Assembly (NCBI GenBank): GCA_018221135.1
Contig: JAAOYB010000050.1
Location: forward strand, 527 to 64,526
DNA from: Candidatus Woesearchaeota archaeon
GTDB lineage: Archaea > Nanobdellota > Nanobdellia > Woesearchaeales > BM511
Direction: 5' to 3'
DNA length: 64,000 bases
In this document: positions 3,450-45,626 of the stretch, piece after piece
How positions within the stretch are numbered: the first letter of the stretch is position 1
Layout of the letters: each line of letters starts with the position of its first letter
Notes under the pieces: generated by a model
The model's database searches: none
What the model saw: the letters and a program-made list of their open reading frames with translations, nothing else
Told to the model about the DNA's origin: nothing
Made by a program: the position numbers and the translations under genes

Positions 3450-3922
3450 ACTTCTAAAGTTTTTATCTTATCCTTTATTAACCTTATTTTTTCTTCAACG
3501 CGAAAAAGCAACGCTTTATCTTGATTTGGACTGCTCTTTAAACCGCTATGTTTTTCTTCTAAACTTCTTAGTACTTGTTTTGCTTCTAAAACAACATCCT
3601 TTTTGTTGCCACCAATATTTTTGATACTCATGTTTAACTCGTCATGCCTCTCTTTTTTTTTCTCCTCGAAGAACTCCTGGCTTTTCTTATCTCTTAATTC
3701 CTTGTTCTGATCCGCTCTTTTTCTTAGTTTGTGCTTGATTCGTATTATTTCTCTCTCAAGATTCGTGCCACCCCCGATTTTGTGATTTGCACGTATCAAG
3801 AACTTAATCATCTTTTTTAGCGCGGAAACACTGAGTTTCTGAGAAGAAGGAACCCTCTTTTCTTTTTGGGCTATAGCTGGATTACCGTGATTAACAAGTT
3901 TATTATTTGATTCATCAACCAT
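3446..3922 (-). CDS. hypothetical highly basic coiled-coil protein
   Basis: K/R/E-rich heptad-like sequence; ATGA overlap with 3156..3449. Confidence 0.5.
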   Translation of the reverse strand: MVDESNNKLVNHGNPAIAQKEKRVPSSQKLSVSALKKMIKFLIRANHKIGGGTNLEREIIRIKHKLRKRADQNKELRDKKSQEFFEEKKKERHDELNMSIKNIGGNKKDVVLEAKQVLRSLEEKHSGLKSSPNQDKALLFRVEEKIRLIKDKIKTLEV

Positions 3923-3964
3923 TTTATTGTATGATAACCCCCTAAAAAAGTGATATGAAAATAA

Positions 3965-8043: not shown

Positions 8044-8547
8044 ATGAAGAACAAAATAGCGGGTTACATAATAATTGGGATAGCACTCCTTTTTGGCTTG
8101 ATGATTTGGATGTTTAACAACGCCTTATCAACTATTGTGAGCGTTGCTTGCACTCACGGCCCAGATTGCCCTATGTGGAGAACTATCAATGTGCAAACCA
8201 GTATTGGTTTGGCAATAATGATTTTCATAATCTTAATAGGTGTTTACTTAATCTTTTTTGGCTTCGAAGAAAAAATCGTGACAAAGACGAGAACGGTTCA
8301 CAGACAAGTCAACCCGAATAAGCCAAGCAAAAAAAACTACGAGAAAATTATGAACAAATTAAGCGTTGACCAAAAAAAAGTTCTTGAAAAAATTATTTCT
8401 TCGCAAGGCAGCATGTTCCAATCAGAGATTGTTAGTTCAACAAAGCTTAGCAAAGTAAAAGTTACACGCATCCTTGACCGCTTAGAAGGACTGGGCTTAG
8501 TTGATAGGAAGCGGCGCGGCATGACTAACATAGTTATTCTTAAGTGA
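8044..8547 (+). CDS. membrane-anchored winged-helix (MarR/TrmB-like) transcription regulator with extracytoplasmic Cys/His/Met loop
   Basis: Two N-terminal TM helices flanking 'CTHGPDCPMW'; C-terminal wHTH 'LSVDQKKVLEKII...VTRILDRLEGLGLVDRKRRG'. Confidence 0.55.
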   Translation: MKNKIAGYIIIGIALLFGLMIWMFNNALSTIVSVACTHGPDCPMWRTINVQTSIGLAIMIFIILIGVYLIFFGFEEKIVTKTRTVHRQVNPNKPSKKNYEKIMNKLSVDQKKVLEKIISSQGSMFQSEIVSSTKLSKVKVTRILDRLEGLGLVDRKRRGMTNIVILK

Positions 8548-8646
8548 AACTAGTTTCACAACATCTTTTATAAGGCGTTTCTAATTAACAAATTTCTATA
8601 ACAAGCATAATTGTTAAAAATTACGTTTGGGTGGTGATGTGAAAAA

Positions 8647-8856
8647 ATGGTTGTTACAAAACTAAAAACACAAAGCATGCATTGCGTTAGTTGTGAAGCA
8701 ATGATAAAAGACGCGCTCATGGATTTAAAAGGAGTGTACAGTGCTAAGGCCAATCATAAGAGGGGATTGATCAAAGTTAATTATGATGATTCAATAATAG
8801 AAAAAGAAAACCTCAAAAAAACTATAGAAAAAGCAGGTTATAAAATAAGAGAATAA
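8647..8856 (+). CDS. copZ: copper chaperone CopZ (heavy-metal-associated domain protein)
   Basis: 69 aa HMA fold with 'MHCVSCE' MxCxxC motif. Confidence 0.8.
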   Translation: MVVTKLKTQSMHCVSCEAMIKDALMDLKGVYSAKANHKRGLIKVNYDDSIIEKENLKKTIEKAGYKIRE

Positions 8857-8861
8857 AAAAA

Positions 8862-10346
8862 ATGGTTTACGAAAAAGAAACAATAAAAGTAAAAGGTATG
8901 ACTTGTACTAGTTGCGAAGACATAATAAAAAAAGAAGTAACAAAAAATAAAGGCGTAAAAAGTTTTGAGATTGATTACGCAACCCAGATAGGCCTAGTAA
9001 GTTTTGACCCAGAAAAAACAAGTATGAAAAAAATACTGGGAATAATTGAAGAAGCTGGTTACAACCCAAAGATTATAGGGGGGAAAGCTGAAAAAGATTT
9101 TAGTGGTTCCTATGCTATTAACAAAAAAGTAGTAGGGTACGCTATAGGAATAGTTGGGTTTTTATTAATCGCGTATTTCGTTTTTGGAATAGTTGATACA
9201 GTAAGGCTTCCTCAAATAAGCCAGAACATGGGTTACGGCTTGTTATTATTAGTGGGGTTACTCACTGGTTTTCATTGTGTTAGTATGTGTGGAGGATTCG
9301 TTCTCGGATACACCACAAAGAACTCTAAAGAAGGAAAAAGCAATTATAATGATCATTTCATGTACGGAGCAGGGAAAACAATATCGTACACAATAATAGG
9401 GGCGGGGTTTGGATTACTGGGTTCAATATTTGCTTTCACACCTCTCATGAGAGGAGTAGCAGGCATCTTAGCAGGATTATTTTTAATAATTTTTGGTCTT
9501 AACATGCTCGGATTCTTATCGCCTCTTAGACGTCTCAGACTAAGAACACCAAAGTTCGTATCACGTTTTGTTCGAACCGAATCCACTAAGCACAAAAGCC
9601 CACTTGTTATTGGTTTGCTTAACGGATTAATGATTGCGTGCGGACCACTCCAAGCAATTTATATCATGGCCGCAGGAACCGGGAGCGCGTTAGAAGGCGC
9701 AAAAGTGTTGTTCTTATTCGGTTTAGGAACATTGCCTGTCATGCTCGGTTTTGGTTTCTTAGCGAGTTTTCTGAGCAACAAAGCCACCAATAAAATACTA
9801 AAAGCGAGCGGTTTTGTAGTCATACTACTTGGTGTCATAATGGTTAATAGAGGCTTGGCTCTTAGCGGTACCGGATTTGATACTAACACCTTAGTTGCTA
9901 ACGTATTAGCTAGTAACGACGCATCTTTAACAGATGAAGGAAGCGCTTTAGAATTCGAAGATGGTTACCAAATTATTAGGATGACTGTTAATAGGTATGG
10001 TTGGGAACCAGACAAATTCGTACTAAAAAAAGGTGTTCCTACCAAGTGGATTATTGATGGCGTAGAGATTAATGGTTGTAACAACGCAATCCAAGTACCA
10101 AAATACAACTTAAAATTCGACGTTGAGTACGGCGAGCAAGTAATTGAGTTCACACCAACAAAAGAAGGAGTGATTAGTTGGAGTTGTTGGATGGGCATGA
10201 TACCTGGAGTCTTCGTTGTAAAAGAAGATATTGATTTAAGCGATGCTTCCGCGGTGCAAGGCGCTCTTGAAGAAGTAGTCGTCCCAAGCGGGGGAAGCTG
10301 TGGCGGCGGAGGCGGCGGTGGTTGTGGCTGCGGAGGAGGAAGATGA
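8862..10346 (+). CDS. HMA domain / DsbD_2 (TauE-like) membrane permease / cupredoxin-like domain fusion with C-terminal Gly-Cys-rich tail
   Basis: N-terminal 'GMTCTSCE' HMA; TM core with 'GFHCVSMCGGFVLGY' and 'ACGPLQAIYIMAAG'; C-terminal beta-rich 'WSCWMGMIPGVFVV' cupredoxin_1-like; tail 'SCGGGGGGGCGCGGG'. Confidence 0.65.
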   Translation: MVYEKETIKVKGMTCTSCEDIIKKEVTKNKGVKSFEIDYATQIGLVSFDPEKTSMKKILGIIEEAGYNPKIIGGKAEKDFSGSYAINKKVVGYAIGIVGFLLIAYFVFGIVDTVRLPQISQNMGYGLLLLVGLLTGFHCVSMCGGFVLGYTTKNSKEGKSNYNDHFMYGAGKTISYTIIGAGFGLLGSIFAFTPLMRGVAGILAGLFLIIFGLNMLGFLSPLRRLRLRTPKFVSRFVRTESTKHKSPLVIGLLNGLMIACGPLQAIYIMAAGTGSALEGAKVLFLFGLGTLPVMLGFGFLASFLSNKATNKILKASGFVVILLGVIMVNRGLALSGTGFDTNTLVANVLASNDASLTDEGSALEFEDGYQIIRMTVNRYGWEPDKFVLKKGVPTKWIIDGVEINGCNNAIQVPKYNLKFDVEYGEQVIEFTPTKEGVISWSCWMGMIPGVFVVKEDIDLSDASAVQGALEEVVVPSGGSCGGGGGGGCGCGGGR

Positions 10347-10807
10347 GAAAAGAACTCCTTTTTTTAATTATTATAAGCGCGTCCTTAATTATTACTGGGT
10401 GCACATCAAGTAACAGCGATGGTCTAAGCGGAAAAGTAGCCAGTGACTTAGGAAGCTCAGGAGATGGTTTTGTTAGTATTCCTCTAAGCGACTTATCAAG
10501 TACTTCTAAGTTCTACGAATACGAAGTCGGAGGAGTTAAAGTAAAGTACTTCGCTGTTCTTGGAAGCGACGGAGCGCCAAGAACTGCTTTTGATGCTTGC
10601 GATGTGTGCGGAGGAAGCAAAGGATACCAACAAATAGGAAGCGATATTCGATGCAGAAACTGCGGAAGAGTGTTCAGCATTGACGGCTTAGGAAGCAAAA
10701 ATAAAGGTTATGGTTGTTGGCCTAGTTACTTACCACACCAAGTAGTAGGTGATGACGTCTTATTAAACATAAACGATATAAAAGCAGGCAGTTACAGATT
10801 CGCCTAA
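10343..10807 (+). CDS. Cys-rich lipoprotein (zinc-ribbon-like 'CDVCGG...CRNCG' metal-binding domain)
   Basis: Start ATG overlaps upstream stop (ATGA); lipobox-like 'LIITGC'; four Cys in two CxxC pairs. Confidence 0.5.
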   Translation: MRKELLFLIIISASLIITGCTSSNSDGLSGKVASDLGSSGDGFVSIPLSDLSSTSKFYEYEVGGVKVKYFAVLGSDGAPRTAFDACDVCGGSKGYQQIGSDIRCRNCGRVFSIDGLGSKNKGYGCWPSYLPHQVVGDDVLLNINDIKAGSYRFA

Positions 10808-10946
10808 AAAAAAGATATTGATATGAGGTAAAAAAATAAAATGGTAAAAGATGATGAGTACCTAAAAATAAACAAAGTGGTTTTGTGGCAAGGCGCTACA
10901 GCAATATTAGGAATTCTTTTGATAATCTCAGTTTACACCGGGGGTT

Positions 10947-11624
10947 TTGGAGGAAAAAATGATTCTGCTTCTTGGTAGAGTAGTTGATGATCAAAAAAAC
11001 TTAGAAGCGGCTAAGCCGGCTCAGCCAAGCCAGCCTAGCCCTTCGCCCATCCCTACTCCAAGTCCCAGCGCGGCTCCTACTCCGAGTCCGAATCTTTATA
11101 TGAAGACATTAATCGATGACGACGCAGTAAAAGGGGATCCTAACGCGGTGGTGACTATTGTTGAGTGGAGCGATTTTGAATGCCCGTTCTGTGCTAGGTT
11201 TTATTCAGAGACGCTAGGACAAATACTTAGTGAGTACGTCGATACTGGCAAAGTTAAGTTTGTGTATAGGGATTACCCTCTTAGTTTCCATCCTCAAGCT
11301 CAAAAAGCCGCTGAGGCTGCGGAGTGCGCAGGTGAACAAGATAAGTATTTTGAGATGCATGACTTATTATTTGAGAAAGGCGTAAAAGGAGGCGTTGCTA
11401 GTTTTAAGCAGTTCGCGTCTGACATAGGTCTTGACACAGCGAAGTTTAATACTTGTCTGGATACTGGTGCTATGGCGTCTGAAGTAGCTAAGGATATGAG
11501 AGATGGTCAAAGCCTTGGTATTCGAGGAACACCCGGCTTCATCATTAATGGTCAACTAGTTAGCGGGGCTCAGCCTTTCAGCGCGTTTAAACAAGTAATC
11601 GATGCCAAACTAGCACAAGGATAA
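10947..11624 (+). CDS. DsbA-family thiol:disulfide oxidoreductase (thioredoxin fold, 'CPFC'); N-terminal TM anchor appears to lie in another frame (10841..10978)
   Basis: 'WSDFECPFCARFY' active site; Pro/Ser-rich linker; upstream 45-aa TM-containing ORF 10841..10978 in -1 frame joined across an A6 run. Confidence 0.7.
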   Translation: MEEKMILLLGRVVDDQKNLEAAKPAQPSQPSPSPIPTPSPSAAPTPSPNLYMKTLIDDDAVKGDPNAVVTIVEWSDFECPFCARFYSETLGQILSEYVDTGKVKFVYRDYPLSFHPQAQKAAEAAECAGEQDKYFEMHDLLFEKGVKGGVASFKQFASDIGLDTAKFNTCLDTGAMASEVAKDMRDGQSLGIRGTPGFIINGQLVSGAQPFSAFKQVIDAKLAQG

Positions 11625-11631
11625 AAAAAAC

Positions 11632-11666
11632 TTTTTGTTTTTTTTTCTCTTATTTTTTTGATTTTG
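11632..11666 (+). terminator. oligo-T tract after dsbA-like gene, putative terminator
   Basis: T-rich 35-nt run following stop at 11624. Confidence 0.3.
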
Positions 11667-11693
11667 CAGGAAGTTTCAGATTCACTTAAACGT

Positions 11694-11710
11694 AACATTT
11701 AAATATTTGA
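11694..11710 (+). promoter_or_regulatory. putative archaeal TATA box / palindromic operator 'ATTTAAATATTT' upstream of arsR (leaderless arrangement)
   Basis: TATA-like palindrome ~25 nt upstream of ATG 11728. Confidence 0.35.
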
Positions 11711-11727
11711 ACAACTATTCAACTATT

Positions 11728-12072
11728 ATGGATGTGGAAACAATAAAAAAAATTAAGCAGTTTTTTACTGCGCTATCAGATGAAACTCGTCTAAAAATTT
11801 TATTAGAGCTTATAAAAAGTCCAAAGAATGTAAATGAGATTCATAAAGCAATTCCAAACATAACTCTTTCAGCTGTTTCACATCAACTAAAACAAATGAA
11901 AGATATAGACATAATTTTTTATGAAAGAAAAGGAAGAGAAAAAATTTATTCTTTATCTGAAAAATTTTGTTGGTGTATACTTCGTGATGCTACAAATCAT
12001 TTTAAAAGAGGCGGAAAAAACTGTCCTCATTGCATAGAAATGCAAAAAGAGCATATTAAAAAAAGTAAATGA
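11728..12072 (+). CDS. ArsR/SmtB-family metal-responsive transcriptional regulator
   Basis: HTH 'LSDETRLKILLELIKSPKNVNEI...LSAVSHQLKQMKD'; C-terminal 'CPHC'; ATG at 11728 preferred over track TTG at 11707; gene is markedly more AT-rich than its neighbours. Confidence 0.75.
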   Translation: MDVETIKKIKQFFTALSDETRLKILLELIKSPKNVNEIHKAIPNITLSAVSHQLKQMKDIDIIFYERKGREKIYSLSEKFCWCILRDATNHFKRGGKNCPHCIEMQKEHIKKSK

Positions 12073-12088
12073 GTGTTGAGGTTTTCAA

Positions 12089-14293
12089 ATGAGTAAAAAA
12101 AGTGTTAATATTAAGGGTATGCACTGCGCTAGTTGCGTTTTTAGAGTAGAAAAAGCTATTAAGACAGTTGAAGGAGTCAGCAATGCTAATGTTAACTTAG
12201 CAACTCACAAAGCAAGTTTTGATCTAAGCGATGAAGCTAACCTTGAAAAAGTGGCGGTTGCTATCAAAAAATCTGGGTACGACGCGCAAATAGCGCAAGA
12301 AGCAAAAACAAATGATGATTCTGAAAAATTAGAAAGAGAAAAAGAAATCAACACACTTAAGACAAAAACTTATACTGCTTTGCTATTAAGTATTCCTCTT
12401 CTTTACTTCGCCATGGGAGCTCACGTCGGCCTACCAACTTTTTTTAGTGGTAAAACCATGGCGTTAGTACAATTCTTGATAACTACTCCTATAATACTTG
12501 TTGGTTACGAGTTTTACACTAAAGGTTTTATGAGCGTATATAAAGCCAAGACTGCTAATATGGACACCTTAGTAGCGGTTGGCACTGGAAGCGCGTATGT
12601 TTACAGCGTGGCCTCTAGTATCATCGGAAATTATGACAGCTTGTTTTTTGAAACCGCTGGAATCCTTATAGCATTCATACTCCTAGGCAGGTATTTAGAG
12701 GCTAACGCCAAGGGTAAGACTAGTGAAAGCATCAAGAAATTGATGGGTTTAAAAGCCAAGACAGCCATTGTTATCAGGGGCAAAAAAGAGTTAGAAATCC
12801 CAATTGATGAAGTAGTAGTAGGAGACATCGTACTTGTAAAACCAGGTCAAAAAATCCCTGTTGACGGCGTAGTCATAAACGGTCACTCATCAGTTGATGA
12901 ATCCATGATTAGTGGAGAGAGCATCCCTGTTGAGAAAACTAAAGGCGACAAAGTAGTTGGGGCAACGATTAACAAAACAGGGAGTTTTAAGTTTAAAGCA
13001 ACTGGGGTTGGAAGCGACACAGTCCTAGCTCAGATAATAAAATTAGTAGAAGAAGCACAAGGAAGCAAAGCCCCCATTCAAAAACTTGCTGATGTCATAG
13101 CAGCTTATTTTGTGCCAGTAGTTATTAGCATAGCAATTATTAGTAGCGGAATATATTTTTTTGTTAACGGATTCGCTTTTGCTCTCTCAATATTCGTGGC
13201 TGTCTTAATCATTGCGTGTCCGTGTGCTTTAGGTCTTGCTACGCCAACAGCGATAATCGTTGGCACAGGACTAGGAGCAGAGAACGGAGTGCTTTTTAAG
13301 AGCGCTGAGAGCCTTCAAGAAACAAGAAAGATAAGCGCTTTAGTCTTTGACAAAACAGGCACTATCACAAAAGGAGAACCAGAAGTAACAGACGTGATTA
13401 ATTTTAATAAGTTTAGTGATAGAGAAGTCTTAAGATTCGCAGGCATAGCTGAGAAGAACTCCGAGCACCCTTTAGCCGACGCGGTTCTAAAAGCTACTAA
13501 GAAGAAAAAAATAAGTGTTGTCAGCCCATCTAGTTTTAATAGCATCACAGGAAAAGGCGTGGTTGCCAACCTAAAAAAAGACAAGATAATCATAGGTAAA
13601 ATCTCCTTATTAAAAGAGCACTCAATAAGCACTAAAAAAGCAGAAGACTCTGTTTCAAAACTTGAAAGCCAAGGAAAAACTGTTATCTTAGTAGGCAAGA
13701 ACAAAGAATTAATTGGGGTGATAGGAGTAGCAGATACTTTAAAACCTCATAGCAAAGAAGCAATACAAACAATTAACTCTTTAGGAATCGATACTTTCAT
13801 GATAACAGGAGATAATAATAAGACCGCTAACGCAATCGCTAAACAAGTAGGCATCAAAAATGTAATCGCTGAGGTGATGCCAAACCAGAAAGCCTCCGAG
13901 ATTAGAGGTCTTCAAGAAAGCTATCTAAGCGTTGGGATGGTAGGTGACGGGATCAACGACGCCCCTGCATTATCCCAATCAGACGTGGGCTTCGCAGTTG
14001 GTAGCGGGACAGACGTAGCAATTGAATCTGGAGACGTCGTATTAGTAAGAGATGACCTTCGAAGCGTGCTTACCAGCATCGAATTATCAAAGTATACTTT
14101 TAGAAAAATAAAACAGAACTTGTTCTGGGCGTTTTTTTATAACGTGCTTGGAATCCCCTTAGCAGCAGGTGTTCTTTACCCTTTCACCGGGTTTTTATTA
14201 AATCCCATCATCGCTGGTGGAGCCATGGCGTTTAGCAGTGTGAGCGTTGTTAGTAACACATTACTTATGAAGAATTACAAAGCCAAGTTTTAA
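12089..14293 (+). CDS. copA: copper-translocating P1B-type ATPase CopA
   Basis: N-terminal HMA 'GMHCASCV'; 'CPC' in TM6 '[11 protein letters not shown]'; 'DKTGTIT'; 'GDGINDAP'; 734 aa. Confidence 0.92.
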
Positions 14294-14296
14294 AGG

Positions 14297-15826
14297 TTGT
14301 TTTTATCGAGGAAAAAGTTTATAAAGGCAAAAACACATATTTTTCTCTTAATGCCTGCTAGTAAAAAAAAAGAGGAATTATTTAAAGAACTAAGCTACAA
14401 AGGCTACCACCCGAAAGGAGAAGCTCCTGATGAGGAATTATGGGAGTTTCAAAGCCTCGTAGACGCAGGACCCTCAGGGTACCCTCAACCAATCAGGCAC
14501 TACGAGCTTCTCATTGAGAGACAAGGGGAGAACTTAGAGAGCGCTTATTACTTCTTATATCAACTAATCGGCGTCGATATAGGTCATAGAATAGAAAAAA
14601 TAATTGATACTTACGCTGCGAGTCAAGCTTCTTCCCAATTCGGAAACCTCCAAGCAAGGCTTAGCATGCAGCAAGGCCAGATAAGCCAATACTTAAAAGG
14701 CATCAGCGACATGGTAAAAGGATTGTTTCAGCTTGTTCGAGAACTTCGAATAATCGAGGAGAGATTGCAGTTTTACTTTGACACCTACGATGATGAGAGC
14801 GGAAACAAAGACTCAAGCGAAATCGTCCTAAAAGGCTTGTGGGTTGACCAAGTAGAAGGAGGAGCCAAGAATCCCTCGAGCGTGTATGGATTAGCAGCTA
14901 ATGTCGGCTTTACAATACTGCCTGACTTATTTTTTAGGATAAGAGTAAAAAACGCTAAGCGCATAGACGAAAGAGTTGATGAGTTAAAGTTCAACGAGAA
15001 AGTAAAAGAGATCCTTAAAAGAAAACTAAGACAATACCATGAGTGGAAAAAAAGAACTTTTAGCGAGTTAAAAACAAGAAAGCAATTCTTAATAAAATAT
15101 TTGCGTCAACATTACGAATCAATACAACTCTATATTAGTTGGATAAAACCATATCTTAGAAACGTCAAAAACTTACAAATGGCTAAGAAGTTAGAGAGTA
15201 ACAACGAACTCATCAGTAGTTTTGAGAGTAACATCTCAGAAATAGAATTCTTAGGAATAAAAAAAGGGAAAGGGGGTTATAACAGCGTAGCTGTTGTTAA
15301 CATGCTCCACAGAAGCCGCCCCGAACTTAATTATCACGCTCAAGAATACCAAAACAAAGGCCCCACCCACACAGGTAAGCTACGACTCAACATCCGGGGT
15401 TATGCTTGGACTGATAAACAAATCGAGGATTACAAAGAATACAAGCTTAACGAAGACTTAGAATTATTAAGCACTGTTGATGAAAGCATCCAAGCAGCTA
15501 TGGACGCACTTGGAGACGACTTAAAAAAGTATTTGAAAACAAAAGGAGAAGAAATAGACAAACCCATTACTTCTAAGAAGAAAAAAGTTAGGCAGCCAGG
15601 AGCAGCGGATCCTTTCCTTAGCGTGTTTAAGGGCTTCGCCGAGCTTGGGAGAAGTTTTTTCCCCGCCAAACCAAAAAGTGATGGGAGCGGTGAGAAGAAA
15701 CCAACCAAAAAGGATGTGTGGCAGAGTAAAAAAGACATTGTTGGTTCTGTTAAGACCGCTGAGGTAGTGACTTGGCTCGCGTTTAAGAATTTCAAAAAAG
15801 GCAATGGCATGCTTACGTGGTGGTAA
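14297..15826 (+). CDS. large hypothetical protein with no recognisable domain (start uncertain; TTG at 14297 or ATG at 14351)
   Basis: Long ORF 4 nt after copA stop and 3 nt before next ORF; real amino-acid composition; no motifs recognised. Confidence 0.45.
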   Translation: MFLSRKKFIKAKTHIFLLMPASKKKEELFKELSYKGYHPKGEAPDEELWEFQSLVDAGPSGYPQPIRHYELLIERQGENLESAYYFLYQLIGVDIGHRIEKIIDTYAASQASSQFGNLQARLSMQQGQISQYLKGISDMVKGLFQLVRELRIIEERLQFYFDTYDDESGNKDSSEIVLKGLWVDQVEGGAKNPSSVYGLAANVGFTILPDLFFRIRVKNAKRIDERVDELKFNEKVKEILKRKLRQYHEWKKRTFSELKTRKQFLIKYLRQHYESIQLYISWIKPYLRNVKNLQMAKKLESNNELISSFESNISEIEFLGIKKGKGGYNSVAVVNMLHRSRPELNYHAQEYQNKGPTHTGKLRLNIRGYAWTDKQIEDYKEYKLNEDLELLSTVDESIQAAMDALGDDLKKYLKTKGEEIDKPITSKKKKVRQPGAADPFLSVFKGFAELGRSFFPAKPKSDGSGEKKPTKKDVWQSKKDIVGSVKTAEVVTWLAFKNFKKGNGMLTWW

Positions 15827-37866: not shown

Positions 37867-38334
37867 ATGGTTTTAAAAAAGTTAAGTGAAGAGTTTGAGA
37901 AAACAAGAAAAGAGTTAGGCTTCAAATCAAGCCTTGACGAACTAAACCAAGTTTTTTTTATCAAGGACTACATAGAAAAGGAGGGTTTTGTAAGTCAAGA
38001 CTTCTCGCGGCAGCTCTGCTCAAGAATAGTAGACACTTACAATCAATGGTACGGCTACTTACACACTTTAGTAGTTCCGAATCCTCACAGCATGTTTAAC
38101 ATGACAGAAAGCCAATTCTTTGGTGATGAAGAAAAAGAAAAAATAATGTTGTTAATGGATGAGTTAATGAATCACTCAAGCAAAAACACCATAATCGGAC
38201 TTGAAAAAAACAAAAAAGAAGAAGCAATCTTCATCGACGACTCACTTAGCTTATGGGATAAGAAGATAAAACCAGAGTTATTAAAATTATTAAAAAAAAT
38301 TGCTAAGGGTTGGGAAAACAAAAAAAACTCGTAA
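37867..38334 (+). CDS. hypothetical protein
   Basis: ORF track. Confidence 0.4.
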   Translation: MVLKKLSEEFEKTRKELGFKSSLDELNQVFFIKDYIEKEGFVSQDFSRQLCSRIVDTYNQWYGYLHTLVVPNPHSMFNMTESQFFGDEEKEKIMLLMDELMNHSSKNTIIGLEKNKKEEAIFIDDSLSLWDKKIKPELLKLLKKIAKGWENKKNS

Positions 38335-38368
38335 CATTTTTATACTTATAAAAAAAGTTTTTTGTTAT

Positions 38369-39172
38369 ATGCTTAAGAGAATAAATATTTTGATAATCTT
38401 GTTTTCTTTCATACTAGCTATATACGTTGGTTTCTTCCCCAGCTTAGTACTGAACCTAAGATTCGTTTACTTACTACTAATAATTCTAGGTAGCTTCGCT
38501 GGGCTCTTCAACGTCTTTGGTGAGAAGAACAAAGAGTTCTTAATAGCAAACGTCGCTTTTATTATAAGTGCCACAGCGATTAATAACATCTTAGAAAATT
38601 ATTTCTTGCTAAACTACTTATCACACACTCTTAACAATCTAGTCTTATTCTTAGCACCAGCGACTATCGTCGTTGCTTTCAAACCTATCTTGGAGTTTCT
38701 TAGTGACTCAAAATTAATCTTTGACATAAAAGATGATAAAAAGAAAAAAGGGTACACTCCTTGGGACATAGTTATACTTTACACCGTCGCCATAGTATTA
38801 ATAACTCTCGTGATAGAATTGTTCTTTGACGTCTCAGATTTCGAAGGAGTACTAAACACGATAAACTGGATAATCTTTGTTATCTTCTTACTTGACCTTG
38901 GTGTTTTGTATCAAAGAAGTAAAGGAATAAAAGATTTCGCTAAGAGTTATTGGCTTGACGTAATAGCAACGGTTCCCTTAGGACAAGTGTTTAAGTTGGC
39001 TAAGTTCTTTAGGTTCGTAAGAATTGTAAAAATATTATCTAAGACAGGAAAAGCTTCTAAGATTATTAAAGCTGAGAGGCTCACAAAATTCAGCGAGTTA
39101 CTCAAATTCTTTTCTAATAAGAGCGGGCTTGAACCTTTCGAGAAAGACGAAGCTGTTAAGAAGAAAAAATAG
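38369..39172 (+). CDS. membrane protein with C-terminal voltage-sensor-like S1-S4 domain (S4 'FRFVRIVKIL') and no pore domain
   Basis: 8 predicted TM; S3-S4-like 'YWLDVIATVPLGQVFKLAKFFRFVRIVKILSK' with basic residues every third position; ATG 38369 preferred over TTG 38300. Confidence 0.5.
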   Translation: MLKRINILIILFSFILAIYVGFFPSLVLNLRFVYLLLIILGSFAGLFNVFGEKNKEFLIANVAFIISATAINNILENYFLLNYLSHTLNNLVLFLAPATIVVAFKPILEFLSDSKLIFDIKDDKKKKGYTPWDIVILYTVAIVLITLVIELFFDVSDFEGVLNTINWIIFVIFLLDLGVLYQRSKGIKDFAKSYWLDVIATVPLGQVFKLAKFFRFVRIVKILSKTGKASKIIKAERLTKFSELLKFFSNKSGLEPFEKDEAVKKKK

Positions 39173-44702: not shown

Positions 44703-45626
44703 ATGGGACTAACTAGTAATCTTTCTCTGCAAAGAAAAGCACAAACTAAGAAGTACGCGGTGGGGGCTTTTAACATAAGTAACATCGAAATCTTACAAAG
44801 CGTATTAAGCGTTGCGACCAGACTTAAGAGCCCTGTAATTATAAGCACGACGCCAAGCGCGATAAGCTACGCAGGACTACAAAACATTTCTTGTGTCGTG
44901 AGAAACGAAGCGAAGAAAAGCGGTGTTCCTGTTAGTCTTCACTTAGACCATGGGAAAAGCTTTGATGATGTTAAGATGTGTGTAGACGCGGGTTATAGTA
45001 GTGTCATGATCGACGCGTCTGATAAGAGTTTTCTGCAAAACATTAAGTTAACAAAAAAAGTTGTGAGTCTTGCTCATAAAAAAGGTGTTAGTGTCGAGTC
45101 AGAACTAGGAGTTCTTTGCGGCGTAGAAGACAACGTGAACGCCTCAGAGAATGTTTGCACAGTCCCAGCGCAAGCAAAGGAATTCGTAGAGCGAACAGGG
45201 ACAGACACCTTAGCTGTCGCGATTGGTACTAGTCACGGCGCTTATAAGTTCAAAGCGACTCCTAAGCTTCGTTTTGATATCTTAAAAGAGATAAGAAGCC
45301 TCGTTAAAACACCATTAGTTCTTCACGGAGCCAGCGGGGTACCAAGCAACCTATTAACAAAACTCAAAAGTGTGGGTGTTGGGCTTGGCAAAGCCAAGGG
45401 CGTACCAGATGCACAGATAAGAAAAGCCATTTTGGAAGGCGTCACTAAGGTTAACATCGACACAGATATTAGATTAGCGTTTACTTATGGTGTTAAGAAG
45501 TTTTTAGGTGATAACAAAAAAGTTTTTGATCCAAGAAAGATTCTTGGAAACGCAAAAAAAGAAATGGAGAAGATAGTAGAACAAAAAATGTTGCTTTTTG
45601 GTTCGAAAAACCAAGCAACAAACTAA
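44703..45626 (+). CDS. fba: class II (metal-dependent) fructose/tagatose-bisphosphate aldolase
   Basis: 'YAVGAFN', 'HLDHG', 'SVMIDAS', 'GTSHGAYK', 'LVLHGASG' motifs. Confidence 0.85.
   Translation: MGLTSNLSLQRKAQTKKYAVGAFNISNIEILQSVLSVATRLKSPVIISTTPSAISYAGLQNISCVVRNEAKKSGVPVSLHLDHGKSFDDVKMCVDAGYSSVMIDASDKSFLQNIKLTKKVVSLAHKKGVSVESELGVLCGVEDNVNASENVCTVPAQAKEFVERTGTDTLAVAIGTSHGAYKFKATPKLRFDILKEIRSLVKTPLVLHGASGVPSNLLTKLKSVGVGLGKAKGVPDAQIRKAILEGVTKVNIDTDIRLAFTYGVKKFLGDNKKVFDPRKILGNAKKEMEKIVEQKMLLFGSKNQATN

Follow-up and report, generated by a model that had tools for sequence, protein, structure and literature searches.

Comparison with orthologues shows that two neighboring open reading frames (ORFs) in this Woesearchaeota genome are the halves of a single ancestral gene, which encoded a type-II membrane-anchored DsbA-like oxidoreductase; the split between them is unique to the lineage. 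The explanation that we favor, with a probability of roughly 0.7, is a genuine and recent 1-nt frameshift in the anchored DsbA gene, with its function lost or reduced, which would make the locus a young pseudogene or a split gene. Both the protein family (DsbA-like, Thioredoxin_4) and the kind of defect (a lineage-specific frameshift) are known ones.

Anchor and thioredoxin domain lie in different reading frames

Coordinates refer to the whole stretch of DNA that was analyzed (the window, 64 kb), and the features discussed are collected in Table 1. The upstream ORF begins with ATG, ends at the TAG at 10976–10978 and encodes 45 residues (MVKDDEYLKINKVVLWQGATAILGILLIISVYTGGFGGKNDSASW*), which carry the NCBI label hypothetical protein GOV05_04835. 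Its most hydrophobic 19-residue Kyte-Doolittle window has a mean of 2.25 and covers residues 13–31. The DsbA ORF occupies the +1 frame relative to the anchor ORF, may start at TTG 10947 or ATG 10959, and ends at 11624. NCBI records the product from ATG 10959 as 'DsbA family protein [Candidatus Woesearchaeota archaeon]' (MBR9676308.1, 221 aa, on a 64,818-bp contig), and an exact look-up of the 225-aa version starting at TTG returned no record. Both fragments were annotated as CDSs by PGAP. The 221-aa product has no hydrophobic leader, its top 19-residue hydropathy window reaching a mean of only 0.18.

Removal of one A from the A6 run yields an uninterrupted ORF of 260 aa. An earlier reading of this DNA, made from the sequence only, had described the anchor ORF, a DsbA domain in the +1 frame, the position of the A6 run and the fusion of both halves by deletion of one A; the sequence, the Pfam matches and the 260-aa ORF confirm all four. 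No paralogous DsbA gene was found within the window.

Table 1. Features of the split DsbA locus and its gene neighborhood
Feature	Position	Strand	Basis or remark
MarR/DUF7343 regulator	8044–8547	same as DsbA gene	
HMA protein	8647–8856	same as DsbA gene	
HMA-DsbD_2 membrane protein	8862–10346	same as DsbA gene	
FtrD-like protein	10343–10807	same as DsbA gene	
Shine-Dalgarno-like GAGGT, 11 nt 5' of the anchor ORF ATG	10825–10829	+	read from sequence
5' gene fragment: cytoplasmic N-tail and transmembrane signal-anchor	10841–10978	+	ORF; matches N-terminal consensus of orthologues
Transmembrane helix VVLWQGATAILGILLIISV, residues 13–31	10877–10933	+	Kyte-Doolittle
GGAGG, potential ribosome-binding site, 5 nt 5' of ATG 10959	10949–10953	+	read from sequence; putative role
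Interval in which the frame must change from 0 to +1	10952–10976	+	frame analysis
A6 homopolymer, flanked by G and T	10954–10959	+	read from sequence
3' fragment: linker and thioredoxin-fold DsbA domain, 221-aa ORF without hydrophobic leader	10959–11624	+	annotation, Pfam, hydropathy
TT within TCTTGG, best-scoring position of the extra base; one T removed gives GGFGGKNDSASGRVVDDQKN...	10972–10973	+	linker composition, profile HMM
Pro/Ser/Ala/Gln-rich linker KPAQPSQPSPSPIPTPSPSAAPTPSPN	11013–11093	+	equivalent linker in orthologues
CPFC active-site motif (CXXC)	11181–11192	+	both Cys invariant in 87 orthologues
GTPGF loop with the conserved (cis-)Pro of thioredoxin-fold oxidoreductases	11526–11540	+	orthologue alignment
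ArsR regulator	11707–12072		next after DsbA
Copper-type P-type ATPase	12089–14293		after ArsR

The 3' fragment is a complete DsbA-like domain

The 3' ORF matched Thioredoxin_4 (PF13462; 1.3e-38, 133.2 bits, profile positions 5–165 of 165) and DSBA (PF01323; 1.4e-21, 77.6 bits, profile positions 1–190 of 191), exceeding the curated Pfam cut-offs of 23.2 and 25.6 bits, respectively. Besides this whole-domain profile match, it has the CXXC motif and the conserved Pro loop expected of the DsbA family. In the GTPGF loop, the G, T, P and F that are invariant among orthologues are all present, and its Pro presumably adopts the cis conformation. The remaining family trait, an extracytoplasmic location conferred by a signal peptide, lipobox or membrane anchor, is absent from the annotated 221-aa ORF. 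It is present in all orthologues, and here only in the hypothetical fused product.

Among solved structures the closest include the actinobacterial-type DsbA entries 4pwo and 4pwp, of which 4pwp was matched at 2.4e-24, and Bacillus subtilis BdbD (3eu3), matched at 6e-16. The gene thus resembles membrane-anchored proteins of the DsbA/BdbD type in its full-length Pfam matches, its CXXC motif (CPFC), its GTP loop and the ancestral order of anchor, low-complexity linker and domain. It differs from them in that anchor and domain lie in different frames, and the annotated protein carries neither an export nor an anchor signal. The active site also departs from that of Escherichia coli DsbA, which is CPHC.

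Orthologues carry the anchor in frame

A database search with the fused sequence retrieved about 100 proteins, mostly annotated as Woesearchaeota or Nanoarchaeota, with 57–68% identity over 96–100% of the query. These share the N-terminal anchor motif TISKxTLWKxxSAxLxxLLxISIFTGGFG in frame with the domain, and none of the roughly 100 is split. The 45-aa ORF agrees residue for residue with this motif at its near-invariant positions, the W, L, L, L, S, T, G and F all being present in the helix of the anchor ORF. Twelve closer relatives of the domain (66–78% identity) likewise have N-terminal transmembrane anchors without exception, of other sequence. The same was found among 38 archaeal loci taken from GTDB species representatives: every locus with its N-terminus on the contig has an anchor in frame, and no split was seen. 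Two of these loci (L023 and L037) are cut by contig ends, and in a third (L028) the anchor is in frame and the ATG start is absent.

Since all orthologues carry the anchor in frame, the two ORFs are parts of one ancestral gene with a lineage-specific split. The canonical membrane-anchored DsbA that had been proposed from the sequence (anchor, Pro/Ser linker and CPFC domain) is thereby borne out by orthologues with this very architecture, and the alternative of two genuinely independent ORFs finds no counterpart among them.

A profile HMM built from 87 orthologues gave the same picture, the fused versions reaching 407–411 bits where the annotated 221-aa protein reached 369.8. The anchor ORF therefore adds about 38–41 bits, as a real homologue does and a chance ORF does not. 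Across both fragments, the 41 positions that are invariant and the 52 that are near-invariant in the 87 orthologues are kept throughout (93/93). Such retention means that the break is very recent, or that the gene is really unbroken or continues to be expressed; it would be equally expected from a sequencing error or from a recoded gene that is still expressed. The databases searched hold no relative above 80% identity, so that the ancestral allele and the exact lesion are not directly demonstrable. When the 45-aa anchor was used by itself as a query for other anchor-only ORFs, it recovered only itself, the word index being too coarse for so short a query, and a literature search on DsbA in Woesearchaeota found nothing.

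The extra base probably lies downstream of the A6 run

Frame 0 is conserved through GGFG, which ends at 10951, and stops at TAG 10976, while frame +1 is open from 10926. Any 1-nt deletion from about 10949/10952 to 10976 fuses the two frames, and the A-run is therefore one candidate site, not the sole one. The composition of the linker was used to compare candidate sites. In 75 orthologues, the 14 residues after GGF are rich in Gly, Ser, Ala and Thr, with 1.9% Leu and 0.3% Met. By linker-composition log-odds, a repair that keeps frame 0 up to 10971 (GGFGGKNDSAS-GRVVDDQKN) scored +9.3 bits, and repair by deletion in the A-run (GGFGGK-MILLLGRVV) scored −3.3 bits. The resulting margin of 12.6 bits in favor of 10972/73 was matched in direction, more weakly, by the profile HMM (411.0 vs 407.4 bits, a margin of 3.6 bits). 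One orthologue linker reads GRGITGRVVQDAQP (P0107); another contains ..LKFVLV.. (P0104), and hydrophobic linkers are accordingly possible. Genome-wide codon usage over 10958–10976 did not separate the two frames (−1.3 vs −0.3 bits).

The site at 10972/73 lies outside any long homopolymer, and indels would be expected more often in homopolymers than at a TT dinucleotide. Weighing this prior against the protein evidence, we assign a lesion near 10972/73 a chance of about two-thirds and the A-run about one-third, a preference that is moderate and not decisive. The extra base would then sit somewhere in the permissive interval, in the linker just past the anchor, with TT 10972/73 the likelier place and the A6 run the alternative. 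The proposal that the A6 run itself is the lesion is not supported in that form, given where the linker evidence places the switch. Proximity of a homopolymer to a frame change does not by itself make it the lesion; here, comparison with orthologues points about 15 nt downstream of it.

A second assembly carries the same frameshift

A separate assembly covers the locus. Logan contig SRR15671255_249309 (3804 nt) is identical to window positions 8056–11859 apart from 2 SNPs, and encodes the same 45-aa and 221-aa ORFs. The SNPs, at 9056 and 9083 (T/C and G/A), both fall within the HMA-DsbD_2 gene and point either to strains that are close relatives or to differences in the consensus. Homopolymers elsewhere in the window provided a second line of evidence. 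The window has a coding density of 93.7% and 67 other intact ORFs. These contain 325 homopolymers of at least 6 nt, 137 of them 7–9 nt long, and not one is frameshifted. The agreement of the second assembly and the absence of any other broken run together make a homopolymer error in one A6 run improbable. A sequencing error in the A6 homopolymer is unlikely, and as one of the three causes first suggested for the split it is disfavored on these two counts.

More broadly, the organism's gene could be intact, with one base wrongly added to the consensus in the A6 run or nearby. Such an error would leave all 93 conserved positions intact, as in a functional gene, and the locus is known only from one MAG and one short-read assembly. 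The A6 run does fall within the permissive interval, and another MAG, with a broken FtrD-like gene in the same cluster, illustrates that broken genes do occur in such MAGs. We nevertheless regard an error as unlikely: the two assemblies agree at the site while differing at 2 SNPs elsewhere, homopolymers of at least 6 nt inside the intact ORFs of this 64 kb are uniformly unbroken, and the linker composition favors a TT dinucleotide, where errors are not especially likely. A systematic error would, however, be common to both assemblies if they had been built from one set of reads.

An exact 25-nt pattern scan of JGI metagenome contigs for the unshifted allele or for further samples gave 0 matches. 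Look-up of the neighboring FtrD-like protein returned only the same Logan contig, look-up of the ArsR protein returned no record, and a literature search on SRA run SRR15671255 found nothing.

Other ORF pairs in the window were also considered as broken genes. The pair at 44703/45598 was rejected, these being two complete and separate genes with a full-length FBA match and a PPDK_N match from profile position 3. The pair at 37867/38300 had no Pfam match and hence gave no sign of a split gene. Three sizeable ORFs are without a Pfam family at E ≤ 0.001, namely 14297–15826 (509 aa), 37867–38334 (155 aa) and 38300–39172 (290 aa). The window, with a GC content of 37.4%, has neither a tRNA gene nor any Rfam family at gathering threshold.

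Possible recoding at the A-run

Recoding could in principle restore some fused, anchored DsbA, either by a +1 slip of tRNA-Lys from AAA to AAA on GGAGG-A-AAA-AAU or by transcriptional slippage on the A-run, whether programmed or as adventitious suppression. The local sequence would allow it: frame +1 is already open, so a +1 slip anywhere in the A-run would give a complete anchored protein, and A AAA A lets tRNA-Lys re-pair in +1. An SD-like GGAGG stands immediately upstream, and the bacterial prfB +1 shift is stimulated by an upstream SD-like element. Retention of all conserved residues is consistent with recoding as well. The GGAGG, however, is explained by conserved Gly-Gly codons, and if the junction is at 10972/73 no slippery motif is present there. 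The putative recoding site is not conserved, with no split in the orthologues or in the 38 archaeal loci examined. The RNA fold of 10930–11060 does not stand out from chance (z = −1.55; 15 of 200 shuffled sequences folded equally well), and an A6 run is short for transcriptional slippage. We therefore consider recoding very improbable.

The frame-0 sequence A-AAA-AAT is the heptamer of −1 PRF in Saccharolobus solfataricus fucA1, an archaeal gene that lies in two ORFs and is expressed by that shift (PMC1616953). In both cases one ancestral gene is spread over two overlapping ORFs, and the overlap contains the identical heptamer. The downstream frame here is +1 and not −1, however; a −1 slip would read AAA AAA TGA and terminate at once, no significant stem-loop flanks the site, and no relative examined has the split. 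A fucA1-like −1 PRF was rejected on the basis of this stop, and read-through of the TAG was rejected because TGA TGA follows in frame within 4 codons. For cellular Archaea, −1 PRF is the only kind of frameshifting established so far (PMC8037382), and the sole +1 event mentioned in a review is that of a haloarchaeal virus (PMC8211752).

Programmed slippage, which the sequence-only reading had listed among the causes, thus goes unsupported in the absence of a split orthologue, of significant RNA structure and of an open −1 frame, and of the three causes a recent pseudogenizing frameshift fits best. The least probable reading of all is that the split is in use, with a low-frequency +1 shift on GGAGG-A-AAA-AAU supplying anchored DsbA alongside a 45-aa membrane peptide and a cytoplasmic DsbA domain from the internal SD-ATG. 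Were this so, the gene would provide the first example of +1 programmed frameshifting in a cellular archaeon, and only then would the site be of wider interest.

Predicted products of the split gene

Under the favored reading of a genuine frameshift, the ancestral product would have been a type-II membrane-anchored, extracytoplasmic DsbA-like thiol:disulfide oxidoreductase. Translation from ATG 10841 would now end at TAG 10976 and release a 45-aa anchor peptide. Any thioredoxin domain would then have to come from internal or coupled initiation at GGAGG-N5-ATG 10959, an element whose GGAGG is formed by the Gly-Gly codons of the conserved GGFGG motif and whose ATG sits 17 nt before the upstream TAG. 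Such a 221-aa product, with neither signal nor anchor, would stay in the cytoplasm, away from its substrates and its DsbD-type partner. As this product has no anchor, its extracytoplasmic function would be lost or greatly reduced; from this topology we infer loss of function of the DsbA gene.

The mutation could instead be real and tolerated, the anchorless DsbA-like domain, and perhaps the 45-aa membrane peptide too, being kept as working products, for example as a cytoplasmic thiol oxidoreductase. The perfect SD-like site at a spacing of 5 nt argues for this, and the short distance from the ATG to the upstream stop favors coupled re-initiation. The domain is undamaged, and its annotation by PGAP, like that of the anchor ORF, is as a CDS. 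Against these points, the arrangement occurs in no orthologue, the cytoplasm is not where DsbA-type proteins act, every relative is anchored, and the intactness of the domain is equally explained by a recent break. SD-like motifs, too, precede only about 18 of the 67 ORF starts in the window (about a quarter). A functional split is accordingly a doubtful alternative.

The DsbA gene closes a copper/thiol gene cluster

The DsbA gene is the last of a same-strand cluster (Table 1), and its ancestor would have been the final gene of a copper/thiol cluster found in DPANN. At least 16 DPANN loci share the set of HMA-DsbD_2, FtrD-like, DsbA and Cu-ATPase genes; their DsbA gene is intact, and the FtrD-like gene often stands immediately 5' of it. 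Members of the conserved cluster are HMA, HMA-DsbD_2, FtrD-like protein, anchored DsbA and Cu P-type ATPase, in some cases with MarR/DUF7343, at loci including L002, L011, L015, L022, L026, L029 and L030. The HMA-DsbD_2 membrane protein, encoded two genes 5' of DsbA in an arrangement kept in relatives, is a candidate redox partner. From this gene context, we predict a DsbA-type thiol:disulfide oxidoreductase activity with a DsbD-type partner.

The cluster at 8044–14293 resembles an Scs-like module for copper tolerance and thiol-disulfide exchange. The domain shows significant sequence similarity, at 1e-9 to 8e-8, to ScsC-type proteins described as 'suppression of copper sensitivity', 'copper resistance' or 'metal resistance' proteins (PDB 4gxz, 6nen and 6mhh). 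The neighborhood is alike in its DsbD-family membrane protein, HMA domains and Cu P-type ATPase, and is conserved in at least 16 DPANN loci. This similarity is weaker than that to DsbA/BdbD, and the partner here is an HMA-DsbD_2 fusion with an FtrD-like protein rather than ScsB. We infer that the cluster would form a copper-stress and thiol-disulfide module acting on the outer face of the membrane.

Two further observations concern genes of this cluster. The HMA-DsbD_2 protein has a C-terminal extension of about 160 aa without a Pfam match, which ends in the Gly/Cys tail SGGSCGGGGGGGCGCGGGR; the coding sequence of this tail overlaps the start of the FtrD-like gene. At L015 (JAAOYC010000029.1, Woesearchaeota DPANNHV_H2.bin.19, 3523–3950), the FtrD-like gene is split between two frames near 3840–3860, with sequences ..SIDGLGTKGTGAGQ.. 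and ..NKGYGCWPSYLPH... It lies directly 5' of that MAG's intact anchored DsbA, which makes it another gene of the conserved cluster that is broken, this time in a different MAG.

Implications

The split DsbA gene resembles the ordinary frameshift pseudogenes and split genes of prokaryotic genomes and MAGs: a single 1-nt change in a low-constraint linker, confined to one lineage, with both halves recognizable. It differs only in its very recent age and in a chance SD-ATG from which the 3' half may still be translated. The finding matters mainly for annotation: MBR9676308.1 and GOV05_04835 are the halves of one frameshifted gene, and their records should mark it as a disrupted CDS or pseudogene. 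In this Woesearchaeota population, the anchored oxidoreductase of a DPANN-wide copper/thiol module has probably only just been lost. If the break is real, it would add one minor instance of gene loss still under way in reduced genomes.
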